Shown in pieces: positions 2,682 to 64,000 of a DNA stretch of 64,000 nucleotides. The stretch spans positions 94,709 through 158,708 of the forward strand of contig JAPLSY010000084.1 of the NCBI GenBank assembly GCA_026398415.1, written 5' to 3'. Both the position numbers and the translations under genes were made by a program. The notes beneath the pieces were generated by a model, which searched no databases, had not been told where the DNA came from, and saw nothing but the letters and a program-made list of their open reading frames with translations. Source of the stretch: Kiritimatiellota bacterium. GTDB lineage: Bacteria; Verrucomicrobiota; Kiritimatiellia; JAAZAB01. Position 1 is the stretch's first letter; each line of letters begins with the position of its first letter.

Positions 2682-5600
2682 ATGGCTACGCGACAGAATT
2701 CACCAGCAAAGATCAGAGTCATGCACTTCACATTCTGCCTTGCGGCCCTCTTGTGCCTCCAACTGTTGTCTTCCTGTACCGTTGATAAACATGCCACGGC
2801 CGGCCCTGGTTTTCCTCAGCCGGGCTCTGCAATTTTATCGATTTCTTTCGATCCGGCGCCTCGCGGCATTGCGGTTCAAACCGCTCCCGGCAAAACCGGC
2901 CTGGCCGCGGTGATTACGGACAAACCCCTGCTCTTTGCCTTGCCCGCGGAGTTCAATCCGGAAGCCAGCGCCATCGAGATGTGGATCCGGCCGGACTTCG
3001 CCAGTGCGGACAACGCCTACCACCGTTTTTTTGACATTCGCGGCGATGGGAAGACAAGCATCTCCATGTACAAGAGCGGCGCGGGTGGCGGCAACGGGCT
3101 GTTCATGGTCCTCTGCGACCGGAACGGTGTCAGGTTCGAGGCCGGGGCGAACGAAGGCCGGGACTATTCCTGGAAGCCGGGCGAGTGGCACCACCTGGCC
3201 GGAAGCTGGGATAGCGCCGGCGGTTTCGTGTCCTTGTTCTTTGACGGGCGCGAAGTGGCCCCGCGGCGCGGGACGCCGTTCAGCCTGGGCACCATGCAGC
3301 CCATCATGTCCGTCGGGGCGAACCTGTGGAACGGCGAGGTCTGCCCGGGACTCATCGACGAGATCCGGCTCTACCGCGAACCGGCCACTTTGGGAACGTT
3401 GGTGCGCACCGGCACCGCGGCGGCCGACCAAAGCCCCTGGAAACTGATTGACGGCGACACGGGCCAATCCGACGCGTGGTCCGGAACCGGTAGCTCTAAT
3501 TTTGTCGAGGTCGTCCTCCCACGCCCTGTGCAACTGGCGATGGTGCGGGTTTACCCAGGTGCTCTCGCCTACTGGGAGATGCCCAGCACAGAGTGCTCAC
3601 CGCGCCAGATCGAAGTTCAGGGATGGATTGGCAACCGGTGGCAGACCCTCGGCGCGGCCGTGCCCGTGCCGCGGTACGACGGCAAGCCGGGTCCCTTCTA
3701 CGTCGTGGCACAGTTCAAACCCCGGCAGGTCAGCCGGTTCCGGGTTGTAATGCCTTCGACCTATGACGAGGGGCGGCGTGTCGGGCGTGCGGACAGCGCA
3801 CCGCTGCCGACGGCAGAGCGCGAACTGGTTGTCCGCGAAATTGAGTGGCTGACCGCGGAGCAACTGGCGGACAACAATAGGCAGCTTCGCCAGTTGCAAT
3901 CACGGTTGCAGGACGAACTGGCAATGTGGACCAAAAGGTTTGCGGTGCAGACCCCGTCGCCGCTTGACCGGGCTGTCCGGGACCTGTATGGCGCCCAACT
4001 CGCGCAGTTCACCGAGCGGCTGGCAAAACTGCCGGCGGGCGGTGCGCAGGAACTCAGCGAGTTCGAGACGGAATGGAACCAGGTTGGGCAGTGGCTGACT
4101 CCCTGGCATGCGTGCGCAGTCCGCAACGGCAGCCAGACGGTCATCCCGGGGATGAACGATAAATCGGTTGGAGAACTGCTGCTTTCCGTGGACCCTGGCG
4201 CCACGCCGCACCAGTCGTATCCGGCCAAGGTGCATCTTGACCTGCGCCTTGCCGAGAGCGTCTTCGGACACCCGGTCAACCCTTACGAAATGCAGGTCGT
4301 GGAGGTGGACGCAAAGGGGATTCTTTTGCCTCAGCAGTCCGGCGCTGACGGAGTACGCCGATTCCTTTGCAATTCCCGGTTCGACCGCCTCGATCCGAAA
4401 CGTGGTGTCCTGGCCTGGACAATGCGGGACCGCAGTGCCCGGCAGTTTGTCGTGCGCTTCCTGCCGCCGCCGGAACGCCCGCCCGAGAAAGGCATGTGCA
4501 CGCTCGGCGACGGCGACCACTTCTACTTCGATAATGTGGCCAACGATTCCCTGCCGGCGGATCTCTATACCTGTACGTTCCTCGACTGGAATGGCGACGG
4601 CAGGCAGGATGCGGTTGCCGGCCGCTGGACCGACTATTGCCACGTGTGCTTGAACATAGGGACAACCAACAAACCGCAGTTCTCGGAACGCGAGCATTGG
4701 CTCGTGCGCGATACCACCGGCCTGCCGATCGCCGCCGCAACAGACCGTCACGGCACTGCTTTTTCCATGGCCAGCCCAATCGACTTCGATGGTGACGGCC
4801 GCGTGGACATTTTCCTGCGCGGGTACTTACGTGAGGGATACATGTTCTATCGCAACCTCGGCCCGGTGACGTTTCCGGTCATGGCGCCGAGTCGCATTCC
4901 GCGCGGCCTGCCCAAGGGCAAGGGTATGGCCGCCTTCGGTGACGTGAACGGCGATGGGATTGCCGATGCCATCGTGGTGGTGTCCGGCAAGGATTCCGAG
5001 CGGCTGAGCCTGCACGAAGGCACGGGGTTGGATCCGGACGGAACTCCGGTCTTCAAACCGGGCCGGGTGCTCGATGCCGCCATTGTCCGGAATCCTGACG
5101 TTGAGCGTGAAGGCAGGATGACGACTCTGGCGCTTGCCGACCTTGACGCGGACGGCGACCTGGACCTGACCGTCTGCGTGCCGCCACACGTCTGGCTGTA
5201 TGAGAACACCGGCGACAAGACGCATTTCATTCTGGCGCCGGGCCGTCAGCTCAAGATTGGCGACGAGCCACTGGACGTCGGGTTCTACTTTCCATCCATA
5301 TCCTGGTCAGACTATGACGGCGATGGCGACTTGGACATGGTACTCGCGCCCGGGTGCAGAGTCTATCTCAACGAAGGCGACCGGCATCATCTCAAACTCG
5401 GCCGGTCCTTGTGCCCGTCATTGGCCCAGCAACAGGTGATGCCGCGCAGCAACCTGCGTGCGCAGGCTATGGTTGACTGGGATGGCGATGGCGACTTGGA
5501 CCACCTCTTGCCCGCCGCCTACTGTCCCGATCTCGAAGTGGCGGTCTGGCAGGACGGGCTCTTCCGCGAGACCAAAACCATTCCCGTGGACCCGAACCGG

Positions 5601-29829: not shown

Positions 29830-30011
29830 AACTATCTTAATATTAAACCGTTATACGATTGACGGTCTTCATTCATTTGGTGTAAGAATGACTATTCGAA
29901 CACCCAATATCCAACAAGGAATGGCCAATTTCCAAATGAATGAGTCTGTATTCCGTTGGGTATTTGGGTGTTGAGTGTTGGTTATTGGATATTCAACTGC
30001 TCTTTTTTGAT

Positions 30012-55577: not shown

Positions 55578-57257
55578 ATGGACCAATTCACTAAATGGAT
55601 CAATGCTTCCTGGCCGCTCTTCATTCTGAACGGGCTCTTCATCGGCATCGGTTTATCCTGGCTTTTCCTGATCCCCTACAACAATGCCCCCGACGAAAAC
55701 ACGCATTTCAAATACAGCGTTGAGTTCATTCTCACCCACCATCGCCTGCCGGTCTGGGGCGTGGATGATTTAAACCAGTTCCGTCACTCAATCGGTACTT
55801 ATAACCAGATGCCGGCGCTGAACTACGTGGCCGCCGCCGCCACCGCACATGCCGGCCACACGCTGTTTGGCATCGAGCCCTACCACGGCGCCCGGCTGGC
55901 ATCGTTAGCCTGGGGCCTGATTTTCATCAATGGCCTCTTTCTAACCATCAGGACACTGATTGATCGTCCGCTATCGTCGGCGATTGTCACGATGGCGTTC
56001 GCCTTCATTCCCCAGGTCCTATTCATCTTTTGTTATGTGAACGCGGACGCCTACGCGCTGGGCATCACCGCCCTGCTGGCGTATACGCTGGCGCGATTCT
56101 GGAAAACGCCATCCAATGCCGCCCTGGTCATGGTCGGCTTGGCCGGGGGCCTGCTCTTTTCGGCCAAATATAATTATTTTATCTTCATCCCTTTTCTGGC
56201 GGCCGGTTTCAGCTACCTGGCTTATCGCGGTCGCCTGCCGTGGTCTGCCGTGTTCCGCATGGCCCTGGCCGTGGCCTGCGGCGCCATCCTGATTTCCGGA
56301 TTCTGGTATGCGCGTAATTACTGGCTTTACGGGACGCCCATGCCTGTGCTCCTCGGCGAGGAACGTCTGGCACAATTAGGGGTCCTGCGCGAGGCGGTTC
56401 CCGTGAATCATGGGTTTTCCCGCGCATCCCTCCTCTGGCTGGTTCAGCAGAAATTTGTGACGACCACGTTCGCTTCGTTCTTCGGCCTGTTCGGCTATCT
56501 GGATGTCGGGTTCTGGCCGGAAGTGTACGCCCTGCTCCGGATCATCATTCCCGCGCTGGGCGCCCTGTTTCTATTTGAACTCCTGATGACGCGCGATCGC
56601 CCCGCCGAGATCGCCGCCCTGTGGCTGAGCGCCTTAATGCTGGCGGTATTGGGCATGCATGTGTGGATGAGTCTGTCCAACAATTTCCAGCCCCAAGGCC
56701 GGTATTATTTCACCGTGCTGGTGCCGATGGCGGTATTTTTGGGATGGACCGCCCGGCGCCAGCGTCGATTGCTGAAATACGCCGTAGCCCTGATGGTGGT
56801 GACCGGCGCGCTGATGGTCCAGGCAACCATGCTTTTCGCCCAAACGTACGGGGAGCCCCTGGTTTTTGCGGTCTTCTGGGATGGACCGGCGGGCCGCTGT
56901 GCGGCGATCAGCCGGGCGGAGCGCGTGGGAAAAAACTGTATCCGGGTTTCCTGCGCGCCCGACGACGCCCACGATATTACCCTGGTGCGCGTGGATTTTC
57001 CCAAGCGGATCCTGGGGCGTTACCGGGATTTCACACTGACCTTCAATGCCGAAGGCGACAAGCAGGTTTTTAGCGGGACCAATCTGCCGGATCCGCAGTG
57101 CGTGGATATAACATACGACCCAAAACTGAAGGCCTTTGACGCGATCGGACCCAATCCTTCCGCATCCTTTACGCTTTCCCCTGCCCCAACACCAATCCGG
57201 GCCATTACCCTCGATACGGCCGTCGAACATCGCCGCTTGCGCGACCCGGTATTCTGA
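55578..57257 (+). CDS. Large polytopic membrane protein, GT-C-like putative glycosyltransferase (third in cluster)
   Basis: About 13 TM helices, and 'NAPDENTHF' in the first periplasmic loop (the DE motif position of ArnT/PMT-type GT-C enzymes). C-terminal soluble domain. Confidence 0.4.
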   Translation: MDQFTKWINASWPLFILNGLFIGIGLSWLFLIPYNNAPDENTHFKYSVEFILTHHRLPVWGVDDLNQFRHSIGTYNQMPALNYVAAAATAHAGHTLFGIEPYHGARLASLAWGLIFINGLFLTIRTLIDRPLSSAIVTMAFAFIPQVLFIFCYVNADAYALGITALLAYTLARFWKTPSNAALVMVGLAGGLLFSAKYNYFIFIPFLAAGFSYLAYRGRLPWSAVFRMALAVACGAILISGFWYARNYWLYGTPMPVLLGEERLAQLGVLREAVPVNHGFSRASLLWLVQQKFVTTTFASFFGLFGYLDVGFWPEVYALLRIIIPALGALFLFELLMTRDRPAEIAALWLSALMLAVLGMHVWMSLSNNFQPQGRYYFTVLVPMAVFLGWTARRQRRLLKYAVALMVVTGALMVQATMLFAQTYGEPLVFAVFWDGPAGRCAAISRAERVGKNCIRVSCAPDDAHDITLVRVDFPKRILGRYRDFTLTFNAEGDKQVFSGTNLPDPQCVDITYDPKLKAFDAIGPNPSASFTLSPAPTPIRAITLDTAVEHRRLRDPVF

Positions 57258-57337
57258 TGAGTTTGATTTTCGGGGGGTACCGAACGGCCGGGGTGCTGAG
57301 AGTTTGTGCGGAACATGCAACACCCTCGAGCACGTAG

Positions 57338-57883
57338 TTATGCCTTTGTTAGCAATCGTTCTCGAATCTGCTGGAACAGGTTGCTCTTGCCTTCGTTTGC
57401 AGACCACCTCTCGATTTCGCCGAAATCAATTACGTTTTCCCTGGCAACCAAAATTGCCTGTTCGAGACACTGGTGATCATTGTCGTAGTAGAACCATGTC
57501 AGCCGGTCTTTTACGCAATCGGTGGGCGATATGATCTTGAGAATGCCGGTAGCCTCATGCCAATCATGGATCTCTTTGACGGGTTCTTCGCCAACGGAGG
57601 GTGGTCCTTTGGGAAACTCAACAAAGAAGTCTGTGCCCGGATGTTTGAAATACCGTCCATTTTCGGAGAAGCCCATGCTTAACATCACTTCACGAACCAA
57701 GCTGCGTTTGGGCGCCATGAGCGTAGTGTGAACCATATCCAAATCCATCGAAACATATTTTCCCTTACTGTAAATGGAAACGCACGCGCCACCGCAGAGG
57801 ACCACATCAATTCCTCTACCGCGAAGATGTTCCTGAATAAATGCCGCAAGGCCAGCCCTGCCCATTTTGCCGATGGGCTTCAT
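57338..57883 (-). CDS. Nucleotidyltransferase-fold protein, AbiEii/DUF1814-like (putative toxin)
   Basis: 'LCGGACVSIYSKGKYVSMDLDMV' fits the pol-beta NTase motif (hG[GS]x9-14DhDh) and the AbiEii 'GGTAL....S.D.DLF' pattern. It overlaps the upstream wHTH gene by 4 nt. GC ~48%. Confidence 0.4.
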   Translation of the reverse strand: MKPIGKMGRAGLAAFIQEHLRGRGIDVVLCGGACVSIYSKGKYVSMDLDMVHTTLMAPKRSLVREVMLSMGFSENGRYFKHPGTDFFVEFPKGPPSVGEEPVKEIHDWHEATGILKIISPTDCVKDRLTWFYYDNDHQCLEQAILVARENVIDFGEIERWSANEGKSNLFQQIRERLLTKA

Positions 57884-58245
57884 AACGGCTTGCCTCTCCG
57901 CCTCGGTCTTCGTCTATTAATAAGCAGTCGCTCCTTGAGGTCTACGGGGCAAAACATCATTACCTTGACAAGTAAGGCCTTGAGTTCATTCAGGAATGGA
58001 CAACGCGGATTGAATGAGTACAACCGTGTTTTACCTGCTGATCGGCTACGAAAAACCCCCCCCGCTTCCAGTTTGTCCAATTGATTGCGGATAGGTCTAT
58101 AGTCAACACCAAAAAAACGGGCAATTTCCCGGGGATATCCTTCCTCACGCGCAAGAATGAAGAGCAGAACTTGTTCGCAACTTGTTGATCCAAGCAGAGT
58201 TTCCAGCATTTTGCCAACTCCTTTCCTTTGCATCATATGATGCAC
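57880..58245 (-). CDS. Winged-helix transcriptional regulator, AbiEi-like (putative antitoxin)
   Basis: A wHTH-like core 'EQVLLFILAREEGYPREIARFFGVDYRPIRNQLDKLEAGGV', translationally coupled to the NTase gene. Confidence 0.4.
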   Translation of the reverse strand: MHHMMQRKGVGKMLETLLGSTSCEQVLLFILAREEGYPREIARFFGVDYRPIRNQLDKLEAGGVFRSRSAGKTRLYSFNPRCPFLNELKALLVKVMMFCPVDLKERLLINRRRPRRRGKPL

Positions 58246-58373
58246 ACATTACATCACGTGATGTAATATGTGCATCAGTATGCGCAATGGAACCAAGAAC
58301 TGCAAGTTTAATATTCAGATGGCAGAACGATGCTAAAATATATTTATGTATTTCTGTCGATTATCAAAGCAAA

Positions 58374-59330
58374 CTATAGCTGGAGGCTCATCCGCAAGCC
58401 CACATACGCCGATTGATCGCCCACCACGGTGACCACCTTGTTGTCATCCTTGTCGCGGATCATCATCTGCTGATACACGTAACAGCCCCCCTCCAGGGCC
58501 ACTTCCAGTGCGTGGAAAAAGCGTCGGGTCAGTTCCAGGCCGACAGGATAGCGCTGGTCATAATACTTGCCCCCCGGCACCGGCGGATCGTCATCCAACC
58601 GGTACTGCCGGTATTCCCAGCGGGCCAGGACGTTCAGTTTCGTCGTGGGCGAGAGCGTGGTGGTGAAATTAAGCCCCGGCCCCTGTGTGGCCAGCCGATA
58701 GCGTTCGCTCATTTTCCAATCGAACCCCGGGATCGGGATTGCCAGGAAAGCCCCCTCGAACCCGAAGCCCACGGCCGTTAACGACCATTTAAAGTCCGGG
58801 CTGACGATACGACTGACGCCTGCCAGCGCGGCAGGATTGAAGGCCTCCCACAGGTCAGCCTTAGTCTCGCCGGACACGGACATACTCCCGCCCGCCTGCC
58901 AGCCCCATTTCTCGTTGATGGGCGCCATAACCATCAGACCGAGCCGAAGCGTCACGGCATCCTGCATGAATCCGCTCTTGCCGAAGATCGTGTCGTCGCG
59001 CTGGTTGAACGAGTAGGCGGCATATTCGGCATCCACGTCGCCCATCAACATCAAGCCGGGCCGAATGCTCCGGCGCACAATCGCGCCCAGCCTGAAGCGC
59101 TGGGCGGTGACATCACTGCCGTCGTTGTAATGCGAGGAGGGATCCAGGCGGTAGCCGGTGCGCAGTTCGATCCCGCGCCCCAGTGGCGATTGCCCCAGAG
59201 GCAATTGCCTAATGGCCGGCGCGTTGGTCGTTGAGGCAATATCGACAACCGACAGCGCATTGGTCGACTGGGCCATGCCCCTACCCGCCATCAGGATACT
59301 CACCACCATGAGCAAAAAAGCTTTCTTCAT
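58374..59330 (-). CDS. Outer-membrane beta-barrel protein, hypothetical
   Basis: Signal peptide (MKKAFLLMVVSILMAGRGMAQ) and alternating amphipathic beta-strand patterning. It lies inside the low-GC island. Confidence 0.4.
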   Translation of the reverse strand: MKKAFLLMVVSILMAGRGMAQSTNALSVVDIASTTNAPAIRQLPLGQSPLGRGIELRTGYRLDPSSHYNDGSDVTAQRFRLGAIVRRSIRPGLMLMGDVDAEYAAYSFNQRDDTIFGKSGFMQDAVTLRLGLMVMAPINEKWGWQAGGSMSVSGETKADLWEAFNPAALAGVSRIVSPDFKWSLTAVGFGFEGAFLAIPIPGFDWKMSERYRLATQGPGLNFTTTLSPTTKLNVLARWEYRQYRLDDDPPVPGGKYYDQRYPVGLELTRRFFHALEVALEGGCYVYQQMMIRDKDDNKVVTVVGDQSAYVGLRMSLQL

Positions 59331-59526
59331 CTAACGATACGGCTTGTTTGTCTAACGCTCAATTTGCGCTCGTCCCGCCTCAGCCATCTTTGTATACTCG
59401 CGGCACACTGGGTAAAACATTACGTCTTGTCAAGCGGTTTTTTGACGGATATCATTCCCTAGCTAGGTACCGATGGGATGCTATTATTGAGGCATAATAC
59501 CTTGTTCGGGAAGAAGGTAAAATGGT

Positions 59527-59856
59527 ATGGATCATAAAATCGCCATTGTTTTGGAGCTTAGCGCTGGTGTGGTTTTGATAATCAAATACTTAGCAGGCCC
59601 TTATCTTTATCGAGAAGCAGAACGATGGGTAATGAAAGCAGTTCTCTGCGCAGGAGTGGCATTCCTACTCTGCGGAATGATGGGGGCCATGATCTACTGG
59701 CATCTCGTCAAAATTTCGTCGCACCAGTTCATGGTTGCCGCTTCTGCGCGATCAGGAATTGGCGGTATCGCTGTCGGCATCCTGTTGTCTTTGCTATTGT
59801 CCGGTCAGATAAGGAAGCTTTTCGTCTTCTACAGGACCAAACTTCAAGAAAAATAG
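59527..59856 (+). CDS. Small membrane protein, hypothetical
   Basis: 109 aa with three hydrophobic helices. GC ~45%. No homology recognised. Confidence 0.3.
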   Translation: MDHKIAIVLELSAGVVLIIKYLAGPYLYREAERWVMKAVLCAGVAFLLCGMMGAMIYWHLVKISSHQFMVAASARSGIGGIAVGILLSLLLSGQIRKLFVFYRTKLQEK

Positions 59857-59936
59857 AACCCCGAACCAAGCCTTCCAGCCTATCGCCCACAAGGTAGGCT
59901 CAGGCCGAAAGCCGTCGTTGTGCAGGAGGACGAAGT

Positions 59937-61013
59937 ATGAACAGAATAATAGCAATCCTGGTGCTCGTAACGTCAGCAGTATTCGTACACGATGTCGCCG
60001 GACAGGGTATGTTTGAACGGCTGAATTCGCAACATTCCGACTTGGCTGCGCCAATTCTCCTTTACGAACAGACCGGAACCAATCCCATGGCGATTGTGGG
60101 TTTTGCAAGTGGCTCTATCTATGGTGTACCCGTAGCAACCAACCAATCCAGCAAATGGATATCAGTCGTTACGGCGCGACATGCCTTACAGAACGGAAGC
60201 ACAGGGAGACCCATCACAGGGATGCTTGTCAAGATCAACATGCAGTCCTACGGTGATGCGAGATATCTTCAGGTACCTCTCAAACACGACCCGCCGCGGA
60301 ACTACTGGGTCTCACCATCGGGACTCGATCTATGTGTTATTCCTGTACCACCCGAGAGCGTACAGGGAGCGCAACTCGTGATGTTCAATGAAGGACAGAT
60401 TGTGTCGCCGGAAACACACCAGAAATGGCAACTTGATCCTGGCCTGATTGTCGAGGCGATCTCTATTCAACCTGAATATCTCGATCCTATTGATTTCAGC
60501 ACTCCACGAAATCTCCCAACGGTCAGAATTGGGCACCTTTCTCGTGTTGGGTTTCTTAAGTTGCCAAATGGACAATGGCACATACGTCCGCATGTCATCG
60601 ACATGCATTCTGGCCCCGGGAATTCTGGTGCATCCGTCGTCCTGCATGTTCCAACAAACAAAGAGGGGACAGCTCCAGGTACCGATGTATGCCAATACAT
60701 GTTCCTTGGAATAGTCATGGGCTTCAAAGAAGAAATCGGATCGTATATTCCCTATGAGGCTTTGGTTACCAACCGAGTCAAAGAGACACAATTGAACCTC
60801 GTAACAGCAGATGGAGGGGTCAGCAACAACGTGGCCATTGCAATCAAGACCGTGGCCAATCCCAATCTTACCTACGTAGTGCCAGTCCATGAACTTGCTT
60901 TACTGCGAGATTCTGAGGAATACAAAACGGCAGTTGCCATTATGGGGAGCAATAAGCAAAACTACCGTATGTTTGCAAACCTGCCAACAACAGGGAAAAC
61001 GCCGGTACAATAA
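59937..61013 (+). CDS. Secreted trypsin-like (S1-fold) serine peptidase
   Basis: Signal peptide. 'VTARHAL' is a TAAHC-like His. 'GPGNSGASVV' is a GDSGGP-like Ser motif. An Asp candidate lies between them. Low GC. Confidence 0.5.
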   Translation: MNRIIAILVLVTSAVFVHDVAGQGMFERLNSQHSDLAAPILLYEQTGTNPMAIVGFASGSIYGVPVATNQSSKWISVVTARHALQNGSTGRPITGMLVKINMQSYGDARYLQVPLKHDPPRNYWVSPSGLDLCVIPVPPESVQGAQLVMFNEGQIVSPETHQKWQLDPGLIVEAISIQPEYLDPIDFSTPRNLPTVRIGHLSRVGFLKLPNGQWHIRPHVIDMHSGPGNSGASVVLHVPTNKEGTAPGTDVCQYMFLGIVMGFKEEIGSYIPYEALVTNRVKETQLNLVTADGGVSNNVAIAIKTVANPNLTYVVPVHELALLRDSEEYKTAVAIMGSNKQNYRMFANLPTTGKTPVQ

Positions 61014-61086
61014 TGAAATCTAGCCTACCTCGTGCCCGTTGCGGGCACTCGGCAGCTGATTTCTGACGTTCGGACAACATAACGCA

Positions 61087-61602
61087 TCATACCGGCGCCC
61101 CAGCGGCCATGGTAATCGTGCGCTTGTCAAGGTCCGGCCCGGTTTCAAAATAAATGTGCATGGTATTTTCCGGGAGCCAGCTGCCAGCACGCTCGGCCCA
61201 TTCGATCACGGTGATTCCTTCCGTATCGAGGTAATTTTCGAAATCAATGCTTAACAGTTCATCCGGATCGCTGATCCGGTAAAGATCCATGTGAACCAAT
61301 GGACACCGGCCGCGGTATTCGTTCACAATCGTAAAGGTGGGGCTGGTCACGGGTTGCCGGACACCCAGCGCCCGGGCCAAACCCTGGACAAAACAAGTCT
61401 TGCCGCTGCCCAGTTCCCCGTGCAAAGCCAGCACGGCGCCAATCTTTCCGCCGGAGGCGGCCTGCCCGAGTTCGGCCAGGGATCCGCCTCCGGCCGTCGC
61501 TAAAGCTATGGCGGGCACGCTGGCGGACAATTCTGCAACGAGGGCCGCGGCCAAAGCCTGGGTCTCCTCCGGACTCTTAGAAATGACTTTCCGCGTCTTC
61601 AT
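61087..61602 (-). CDS. tsaE: tRNA threonylcarbamoyladenosine biosynthesis protein TsaE
   Basis: P-loop 'GELGSGKTCFVQGLARALG' and 'VTSPTFTIVNEY'. Confidence 0.8.
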   Translation of the reverse strand: MKTRKVISKSPEETQALAAALVAELSASVPAIALATAGGGSLAELGQAASGGKIGAVLALHGELGSGKTCFVQGLARALGVRQPVTSPTFTIVNEYRGRCPLVHMDLYRISDPDELLSIDFENYLDTEGITVIEWAERAGSWLPENTMHIYFETGPDLDKRTITMAAGAPV

Positions 61603-61659
61603 CCGATCATCGCACAAAATTGTTTCCTACAGTCTACGGCCTACAGCCTTACAGCCTAT

Positions 61660-63833: not shown

Positions 63834-63889
63834 AACATTCCTAAGCATACAAGAGCTTGGTACTTTATCCGCCTCGGGCGGATGTAACT

Positions 63890-63941
63890 GCGTTCCGCCT
63901 TGGGTTGGGCGAGTCTGCTAACCCAACCCAAGGCGGAACGC
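63890..63941. other. Perfect 20-bp stem / 12-nt loop hairpin (GCGTTCCGCCTTGGGTTGGG..CCCAACCCAAGGCGGAACGC) about 45 nt upstream of mtnA, preceded by a smaller CCGCCTCGGGCGG hairpin
   Basis: Read directly. No U-tract follows on either strand. Confidence 0.5.
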
Positions 63942-64000
63942 ATCGATGCCGAAATATTGACACCATCAAGTCGTGGCAAGCAAAAGAATAGCCAGGTTCA

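Follow-up and report, generated by a model that had tools for sequence, protein, structure and literature searches.

Integrons are known in Verrucomicrobia. Clusters of attC sites without an integrase (CALIN) are common, and loss of the integrase gene intI is one of the origins proposed for them (Cury et al. 2016, PMC4889954). In the toxin-antitoxin systems AbiE (AbiEi/AbiEii, type IV) and MenAT, the gene for a winged helix-turn-helix (wHTH) protein lies upstream of a nucleotidyltransferase (NTase) gene and overlaps it by 4 bp. The operator is an inverted repeat, the toxin has a Pol-beta NTase fold with the motif hG[GS]...DxD, and the distribution is mobile and patchy. The PADLOC candidate PDC-M05 consists of a fusion of a helix-turn-helix (HTH) and an MNT domain, together with a HEPN protein (PMC12988326; bioRxiv 10.1101/2024.09.26.614923). 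Here we describe a region (positions 57,258 to 61,086) of a 64,000-nucleotide stretch of DNA from a Kiritimatiellota bacterium (GCA_026398415.1, contig JAPLSY010000084.1, positions 94,709 to 158,708). This whole stretch is referred to as the window below. A preliminary description, made from the letters of the sequence, had seen the region as one low-GC islet of five genes that was probably acquired horizontally. Horizontal acquisition is confirmed by our analysis, and the mechanisms are largely familiar. However, the region is probably the product of two separate acquisitions that flank a native DUF6268 gene, namely an integron remnant on the right and a wHTH-NTase module on the left.

Composition and conservation of the region

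All 1-kb intervals of the window served as the baseline for composition (mean GC 57.8%, standard deviation 3.5). The intervals that start at 57292, 59505 and 60068 have a GC content of 48.4-49.6% (z = -2.3 to -2.7), rank in the lowest 0.6-2.7% of all intervals, and show a raised tetranucleotide distance (z +2.4 to +3.4). By sliding-window GC and by tetranucleotides, these segments are thus unusual within the 64 kb. The sharp drop in GC that had been described is real, but the flanks have about 58-60% GC and not about 62%. Moreover, the drop is not continuous. The low-GC (48-50%) stretches extend from 57300 to 58400 and from 59300 to 61050, whereas the DNA between them (58400-59300), which holds the DUF6268 gene, is ordinary, with 60-63% GC, a GC content at third codon positions (GC3) of 0.78 and a tetranucleotide z of -0.4. 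The four genes in the low-GC stretches have a GC3 of 0.45-0.56, compared to 0.67-0.78 in PMT2, DegT, tsaE, thiL and mtnA. Because metagenome assemblies made independently from several runs (L001-L008) have an identical gene order, the region is not an assembly artefact.

The gene in the middle (58374-59330, minus strand) encodes a secreted or outer-membrane protein with a signal peptide, which matches PF19783 (E = 2.8e-9, 36.8 bits against a cutoff of 22.8). Its GC of 0.607 and GC3 of 0.777 correspond to host composition. This gene had been listed as the outer-membrane beta-barrel gene of the islet; a secreted or outer-membrane protein is indeed encoded here, but by conservation and composition the gene is native and lies outside the acquired DNA.

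Conservation was assessed with relatives from a thiL-based scan (one genome per species), which were compared by tblastn and blastn. They are metagenome-assembled genomes (MAGs) labelled Verrucomicrobiota or Kiritimatiellia, and their ThiL proteins are 83% (L009), 81% (L012), 78% (L011), 77% (L010), 76% (L013) and 63% (L014) identical to that of the window. The order mtnA-thiL-tsaE is kept in all six. DUF6268 is found beside tsaE or beside the insert of the slot between them, with 83-86% identity in L009, L011 and L012 and 53% in L014. In L012 and L014 this right slot is empty, and tsaE abuts DUF6268 directly. Homology with the empty site of L012 restarts at 61078 (CATAACGCATCA...), which gives the right boundary (61078-61617, minus strand); tsaE itself occupies 61087-61617 (minus strand; matches to PF02367 and TIGR00150). 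Where the slot is filled, its content varies: it consists of the genes mem109 and p358 in the window, of bPH_5 and DUF4160/DUF2442 genes in L009, and of genes for a membrane protein and a C39-like peptidase in L011. Far from being present with the same composition in all relatives, mem109 and p358 were found in none of those compared.

On the left side, L009 has a spacer of 25 bp, between DUF6268 and the gene for the PMT2 glycosyltransferase, in place of the wHTH gene and its NTase partner, p181. The blastn homology between the two genomes pairs 58376 with 10521 and 57258 with 10547, and with DUF6268 only 25 bp away from PMT2, L009 is without wHTH and p181. L011 retains just the 3' two-thirds of p181, with the same PMT2 junction as the window. 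Of the available genomes, the closest thus lack the low-GC genes or have others in their place but keep the genes on either side, which bears out the earlier view that they are horizontally acquired cargo. The view that they form a single islet does not hold, since a native, conserved gene with variable neighbours on both sides divides the low-GC DNA into two separate pieces, i.e. two variable slots. Neither segment has convincing flanking direct repeats or target-site duplications, a tRNA scan of the sequence found no tRNA, and an Rfam scan of 57000-61300 at E <= 1 returned no family.

The N-terminal signal peptide of DUF6268 in the window (59210-59330), L009 and L011 differs from that of L012 (2597-2750). 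In L012, the tsaE stop codon overlaps the DUF6268 start codon (ATGA). Together, these two observations place the integron-side boundary inside the 5' end of DUF6268. On the other side of this gene, the last glycosyltransferase of the glycan cluster varies, with a 713-aa protein in L012 (3600-6600) and the 559-aa PMT2 in the window. In L011 (5805-8031), a 275-bp duplicate of the PMT2 3' end adjoins DUF6268, followed by a GH43-like gene and the 5'-truncated p181, so that junctions of the empty type and of the occupied type are present in one genome.

The attI/Pc-like element and its putative cassettes

The right slot contains an 81-bp element (59426-59506, plus strand) that resembles an integron attI site with its cassette promoter (Pc). 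It contains a promoter, two small stem-loops and a crossover point G|TT at 59504-59506. The promoter scan identified a sigma-70-like site, TTGTCA-17-TATCAT (59427-59455, 10 of 12 consensus positions), which faces the cassettes. The element is single-copy in the window; in L009 it measures about 90 bp and lies between intI and the first variable gene. Homologues are present in L009, L011 and five further contigs; L089, L090 and L091 were found by a metagenome pattern scan with the element, and L107 and L108 via IntI homologues on longer contigs. Its neighbour in L090, L091, L107 and L108 is a bona fide integron integrase gene, and in L089 it is the gene for a different tyrosine recombinase. In L009, L090, L091, L107 and L108, intI is oriented divergently to the array; in the first three of these, the element lies 70-85 bp upstream of it, with about 70 bp in L090 and L091. 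In four of the five other contigs (L089, L090, L091 and L107), homology to the window stops at 59505/59506, which is G|TT, and the sequence past GTT is different in every contig. Given its conservation beside intI, the divergence at G|TT and the promoter-like site, the element behaves as the cognate attI/Pc of this IntI clade. The attI/Pc-like region that the relatives have between intI and the first cassette, as in a complete integron, thus also seems to be present in the window, as judged by sequence.

The integrase of L090 (503 aa) reaches 445 bits on TIGR02249 (cutoff 265), and those of L108 and L107 are 76% and 71% identical to it. IntI homologues are very numerous, and some of them, including proteins from Kiritimatiellia, are named integron integrase. 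L108 carries a textbook array with DUF4160/DUF2442, a methyltransferase, HEPN_AbiV plus desulfurase, and RelB. At the same locus as in the window, L009 has an intI open reading frame (TIGR02249, E = 4e-36) between the element and DUF6268. It is a pseudogene with an internal deletion and a frameshift, and the shifted frame runs on to the canonical ...HSDVKTTMIYTHVL C-terminus. The three small genes bPH_5, DUF4160 and DUF2442 are divergent from it. In the window, the sequence past the stop codon of the L009 intI is joined directly to the attI/Pc element, leaving a scar at 59381-59425, and the alignment shows that L011 shares this junction. No remnant of intI was detected when the 503-aa IntI of L090 was searched against the whole 64 kb by tblastn (best E 0.31). 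These sequence comparisons point to a single ancestral deletion that would have removed intI and its own upstream region but spared Pc and attI. With intI deleted at this locus, the structure would be an integrase-less array.

An integron cassette starts with TTNNNN, which is left by recombination, and its own attC site starts with the complementary R'' box. Putative cassette 1 (59505-59917, plus strand) contains the mem109 reading frame (59527-59856), the R'' box CCCGAAC (59860-59866), which lies 4 nt past the mem109 stop, and the R' box GTTGTGC (59917-59923). Its start, G|TTCGGG (59504-59510), is the exact complement of the R'' box. Putative cassette 2 (59918-61068, plus strand) contains the p358 reading frame (59937-61013), whose stop codons overlap the R'' box GTACAAT (61005-61011), and the R' box GTTCGGA (61068-61074). 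Its start, G|TTGTGC (59917-59923), pairs with the R'' box through three Watson-Crick pairs and one GU pair in the variable tetramer, and the L stem of its attC, GAAATCTAGC/GCTGATTTC, has one base bulged. Seven cassettes were tested for this relationship, two each from the window, L009 and L108 and one from L107. The variable tetramer changes from one cassette to the next, with covariation between start and R'' box: the start tetramer is compatible with its own R'' box in all seven, which was reached by 1 of 5040 permutations.

The sites have a common geometry, R''-3nt-L''...L'-3/4nt-R' with bulged bases. Those at 59860-59923 and 61005-61074 fit the attC geometry of L009 and L108, the generic structure scan itself being unspecific. 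Energy-ranked AAC...GTT folds across the window are mostly GC-rich coding hairpins, and a MAFFT alignment of the attC sites was structurally inconsistent. The fold z-scores are -4.6 and -5.2 for the L009 attC, and -2.8 (top strand) and -3.9 (bottom strand) for the p358 site. The mem109 site is weak as found in the array; circularised with its own TTCGGG, its bottom strand folds with -18.2 kcal/mol (z -4.6). The GC hairpin that had been noted at the right edge of the region, around 61031, is present (GTGCCCGTTGCGGGCAC, 61032-61048), but as the variable terminal stem-loop within the attC-like site of cassette 2; in the terminator scan no T run follows it, and it is thus not terminator-like. Cassette 1 has a GC of 0.487, and cassette DNA has 0.46-0.49 in every array examined versus 0.55-0.61 in the hosts.

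Both cassettes carry cargo of the kind that had been predicted, a small membrane protein and a secreted trypsin-like protease. The mem109 protein (109 aa) has three hydrophobic segments and no family match in the Pfam, NCBIfam, PADLOC and PHROG searches. The p358 protein (358 aa) has a Sec signal peptide and the motifs TARH, GLDL and GNSGA. There is one 100%-identical copy, and there are 26 homologues with 43-56% identity, of which the two named ones are from Pontiellaceae and Kiritimatiellia. In the 26-sequence alignment, S230 does not vary, D131 has a conservation of at least 90%, and the His of TA[KR]H is found in every full-length sequence. p358 has no Pfam match, including Trypsin, Trypsin_2 and PDZ, and neither the protein nor its family profile found anything among PDB sequences. 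Its AlphaFold2 (AF2) model (pLDDT 78) matches the protease domains of HtrA1, DegQ, Deg1 and DegS in Foldseek (E about 1e-6). The model and the conserved His, Asp and Ser support the assignment of p358 as a probable secreted HtrA-fold serine protease. The predicted chymotrypsin double barrel, the His-Asp-Ser triad in the three motifs and the Sec signal peptide are shared with HtrA, DegS and DegP (S1C, PA clan). Unlike these, p358 lacks a PDZ domain and a match to the Pfam trypsin families, belongs to a small family, and carries about 100 additional residues at the C-terminus, which are modelled as beta-strands and two helices, partly at low confidence. On the Pontiellaceae contig, the homologue lies in a run of small co-oriented genes with 38% GC, versus 51% in the rest of the contig, and this run terminates in a canonical GTCTAAC...GTTGAGC site. 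In L104, a Kiritimatiellia MAG, the p358 homologue ends a glycan/ABC-transporter (Wzt) cluster with PMT_2.

Compared to chromosomal integrons and CALIN, the right segment (59426-61077) shows many of the expected features. Its putative cassettes would be promoterless, contain one or two genes and lie in one orientation downstream of attI/Pc; the putative attC hairpins would be built from R boxes and L boxes with an unpaired spacer and with bulged bases, and crossover would take place at G|TT; the cargo includes uncharacterised proteins and toxin-antitoxin-like pairs; intI is divergent from the array in relatives, decays to a pseudogene and is then lost. As in a CALIN or cassette array, content varies between relatives while the flanks are kept (L009, L011, L012, L014). 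CALIN are defined as attC-site clusters without an integrase (Cury et al. 2016, PMC4889954). In contrast, attI and Pc are kept here although intI is deleted, so that the structure is neither a complete integron nor an In0 nor a typical CALIN. It also differs from described arrays in having only two cassettes, in its host, a Verrucomicrobiota/Kiritimatiellia-type MAG lineage, in its CCGAAC/GTTCGG-like core sites, which are one position off RYYYAAC/GTTRRRY, and in the IntI of its clade, which has about 500 aa with an N-terminal extension of about 190 aa.

The most plausible course of events is that cassettes 1 and 2 were inserted by site-specific recombination at G|TT, each ending in its own attC hairpin, and that intI was deleted. 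The outcome would be an integrase-less, CALIN-like array with attI and Pc, in which the promoter reads into two promoterless cassettes and the cargo probably continues to be expressed. The window and L011 carry different cassettes despite their common intI-less junction. Two routes would lead to this: exchange of cassettes after the deletion, with the integrase supplied in trans, or transfer of entire arrays between strains by homologous recombination anchored in the conserved flanks. That the distal junctions with tsaE differ speaks for the second route having had some part in it.

Three further observations were made in the arrays of relatives. The 426-aa tyrosine recombinase beside the attI/Pc-like element of L089 (990-2270) is not an integron integrase (47 bits on TIGR02249) and is co-oriented with the cassette. 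In L107 (770-1441), the gene for an IS200/IS605-type Y1 transposase lies directly past the first attC and apparently interrupts the site. A 31-nt palindrome, GTTGAG(A/C)CGACGCGAAGCGCGTCGTCTCAAT, is found on the minus strand at the attI junction of L089 (about 800-830) and between the two cassettes of L011 (about 4045-4075), and is thus a mini-element repeated inside these two arrays.

The wHTH-p181 module

The left acquired segment (57259-58375, minus strand, GC 0.484) holds the wHTH and p181 genes with their flanks. The wHTH gene, which encodes a predicted repressor or antitoxin, lies at 57880-58209 (minus strand; alternative start at 58245), gene callers and homologues giving a length of 109 aa. 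Its stop codon overlaps the start codon of p181 by 4 bp (ATGA, 57880-57883). p181 (57338-57883, minus strand) is a Pol-beta-type NTase-fold protein of 181 aa, as judged by the AF2 model and Foldseek, and a predicted effector or toxin; it matches phrog_13263 (E = 2e-36). The wHTH protein matches HTH_29 (1e-4), phrog_18520 (5e-17) and the N-terminal HTH part of PDC-M05A (1.7e-9). Upstream of its gene, an inverted repeat at 58223-58292 forms a palindrome centred on TTACATCAC|GTGATGTAA, which is a probable operator and is conserved, matching in both orientations, in the modules of L092 and L095. An imperfect hairpin directly past the p181 stop (57292-57337, minus strand; fold z only -0.8) marks the 3' end of the mobile module. 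Homology between modules ends at 57292 on this side (L098/L099, 88% nucleotide identity) and reaches at least 58283 on the 5' side.

p181 carries a GG..DLD motif; in the family, G31-G32, D47 and D49 show no or almost no variation, and E89 is conserved in at least 90%. There are more than 2000 homologues (1919 clusters at 50% identity), patchily distributed across phyla, with 58-90% identity among the best 120. None was found in the INPHARED phages. p181 has no match in Pfam, NCBIfam or PADLOC (E <= 0.1-1), and the protein and its family profile gave nothing against PDB sequences. The AF2 model (pLDDT 95) consists of a Pol-beta NTase domain and a helical bundle. Its Foldseek matches in the PDB include ANT(2'')-Ia (E = 4.9e-4), LnuA and a fungal NTase-like protein as well as TM1012, MenT1 (E = 8e-3) and AbiEi, and a structural search of BFVD returned generic NTases only. 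With TM-scores of about 0.5, these matches establish the NTase fold but not the subfamily.

A wHTH partner is present in every examined context that includes upstream sequence (L092-L097, L098, L101 and plasmids of Sulfurospirillum and Sulfurimonas), and more p181 homologues are found on Leptospira and Bdellovibrio plasmids. The 4-bp overlap is usual in homologous pairs, and their neighbourhoods are unrelated. Apparent wHTH-NTase fusions comprise a degenerate one that has lost the catalytic motif (P0402) and others that are Arg-rich and probably mis-called genes.

The module was initially described as an AbiEi/AbiEii-like pair. The wHTH protein and the NTase fold are borne out by the AF2 model and Foldseek, but there is no Pfam, NCBIfam or PADLOC match to those families, and since AbiEii and AbiEi are unmatched, we do not file the module as AbiE. 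It has all the features listed above for AbiE and MenAT, the operator being putative, and MenT1 (about 185-195 aa) is similar in size to p181. The structural similarity is weak, however (TM about 0.5). p181 has generic GG..DxD..E motifs only, without a match to AbiEii/DUF1814 (PF08843), and the C-terminal motifs of DUF1814 were not identified in it. In contrast to AbiEi, the 109-aa partner has no C-terminal antitoxicity domain, and its matches to HTH_29 and ArsR-like proteins are weak. Membership in PDC-M05 was considered and rejected. An ArsR-like wHTH tied to a small nucleotidyltransferase is common to both, but here HTH and NTase are separate proteins, the HTH part alone matches (residues 15-98 to profile positions 7-92 of 201), p181 has no MNT match, and neither the module nor its homologues contain a HEPN gene.

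Taken together, the architecture and distribution make it most likely that wHTH and p181 form an addiction module of the toxin-antitoxin or abortive-infection type, similar in architectural kind to AbiE and MenAT. The wHTH protein would repress its own operon at the palindromic operator, and p181 would be translationally coupled to it, with the NTase as effector and the wHTH protein as regulator or neutraliser. We infer the toxicity of the NTase and its neutralisation by the wHTH protein, as well as the transcription of the cassettes from Pc on the other side of DUF6268. Composition, occurrence in the relatives, their integrase, the G|TT junction, the pairing of R'' box and cassette start and the protein folds are direct results of the analysis.

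Alternative explanations and significance

Several points weigh against our interpretation. The attC sites were recognised by hand, from structure, geometry and covariation, and not by a curated covariance model. A generic structural scan gives about 23 attC-like matches per 64 kb even with a geometric stem filter; structure alone is thus unspecific, and positional and covariation evidence was used instead. The R'' box of cassette 2 ends in AAT and not AAC, its R' box GTTCGGA and the GTTCGGG of the attI junction are off GTTRRRY at position 4, and L011, with its two cassettes, does not yield a clean cassette signature. Between the window, L009 and L011, the distal junctions with tsaE are not the same, which the simplest vertical inheritance does not predict, and all relatives are MAGs or metagenome contigs. 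As for the left side, p181 has no sequence link to any validated toxin, and in structure it comes closest to antibiotic NTases (E = 5e-4, TM about 0.5), the match to MenT1 being weaker (E = 8e-3).

The close spacing of the two low-GC segments and their similar composition (0.48-0.50) could suggest a single genomic island that brought in all five genes in one event, as originally proposed, and it fits this idea that the p181 junction of the window recurs in L011, as does the intI-deletion junction. We nevertheless regard it as extremely improbable: DUF6268 has host composition and is conserved in L012 and L014 without both flanking segments, L009 has an integron on one side and nothing on the other, the region as a whole is bounded neither by an integrase or a tRNA nor by flanking direct repeats, and the two halves differ in boundary type. 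An explanation that is confined to the right segment is that this is a hypervariable intergenic slot in which alleles are exchanged by homologous recombination, the hairpins being terminators and the integron features incidental. In favour of this, the neighbourhood is a recombination hot spot, where the terminal glycosyltransferase and adjacent genes also vary between relatives; the distal tsaE junctions differ in each genome, and an intI-less allele with different cargo in the window and L011 is easily explained by flank-anchored recombination. Yet an integron integrase is found exactly here in L009 and beside the same element in four other contigs, divergence begins exactly at G|TT, the complementarity of start and R'' box covaries in 7/7 cassettes, and the hairpins have no T runs. 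Homologous recombination may move whole arrays between strains, but it leaves the integron features unexplained, and we consider it an unlikely explanation of the segment.

For the left segment, the top structural matches of p181 (ANT(2'')-Ia, the fungal NTase-like protein and LnuA), which have the same length and the same layout of NTase domain and helical bundle, together with the conserved catalytic acids, raise the question whether wHTH and p181 are a repressor-controlled small-molecule NTase of the ANT(2'')/Lnu kind, with an antibiotic or a metabolite as its substrate. Against this, p181 does not resemble any ANT or Lnu family in sequence, its structural matches also comprise MenT1 and AbiEi, and its genetic surroundings are typical of an addiction module and not of a resistance cassette, the obligate overlapping wHTH gene, the palindromic operator, the plasmids and the patchy spread across phyla being hallmarks of the former. 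We therefore view this as rather doubtful, though less so than the alternatives for the other parts of the region. Cassettes can also insert at secondary sites (Cury et al. 2016, PMC4889954), so that the module might be a decayed integron cassette beyond DUF6268. A GTTCGGT (57276-57282, minus strand) 10 nt past the terminal hairpin is identical to an R' box of L009, and an R''-like GCATAAC overlaps the stop codon, with a stem after 3 nt. However, no upstream cassette start is complementary to GCATAAC, the spacer to GTT has 7 nt and not 3-4 nt, GGCATAA is a conserved Lys-Ala-stop coding sequence in homologues, and GTTCGG occurs 49 times in the window, counting both strands. L098, the closest module (88% nucleotide identity), loses similarity before any R' box, and homologous modules have ordinary surroundings on chromosomes and plasmids and do not lie in arrays. 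On the grounds of the missing complementary start, the wrong spacing and the homologues outside arrays, we have rejected this very improbable origin and retain two separate acquisitions around DUF6268 as the explanation of the region.

A further-reaching reading is possible, but we would sooner bet against it: wHTH and p181 would be a very widespread, undescribed NTase addiction or anti-phage module, structurally nearer to ANT/Lnu than to AbiEii/MNT, and, separately, the integrase-less attI/Pc platform would keep gaining cassettes via an integrase in trans. The latter is what the different cassettes behind a single intI-deletion junction in the window and L011 would mean.

Elsewhere in the window, 200-2900 is the only other part with 1-kb GC below 0.51, and its tetranucleotide distance is high at 1001-2500; it may be another acquired segment. 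A long, nearly perfect GC-rich palindrome (CGTTCCGCCTTGGGTTGGG...CCCAACCCAAGGCGGAACG) lies at 63886-63958, just upstream of mtnA, and the AAC...GTT stem scan also returned a long hairpin with a 21-bp stem at 29887-29983.

With these results, a vague low-GC islet can be replaced by two defined mechanisms with base-pair boundaries, and the current understanding stands as it is. The right segment adds a new small member to the integrons and CALIN, notable for its kept attI/Pc. It represents an integron lineage in Verrucomicrobiota/Kiritimatiellia-type bacteria that has a long IntI, a cognate attI/Pc and a CCGAAC/GTTCGG core, and sister genomes show intI in three stages, intact elsewhere in the clade and as a pseudogene and a deletion at one locus. 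Judging from its sequence, the integrase-less platform would carry, and probably express, envelope-related cargo at the edge of a variable glycan cluster. On the left, a large unannotated wHTH-NTase family is flagged as a candidate toxin-antitoxin or defence module, and its architecture and distribution make it a reasonable candidate for a new type of NTase-based system of this kind.

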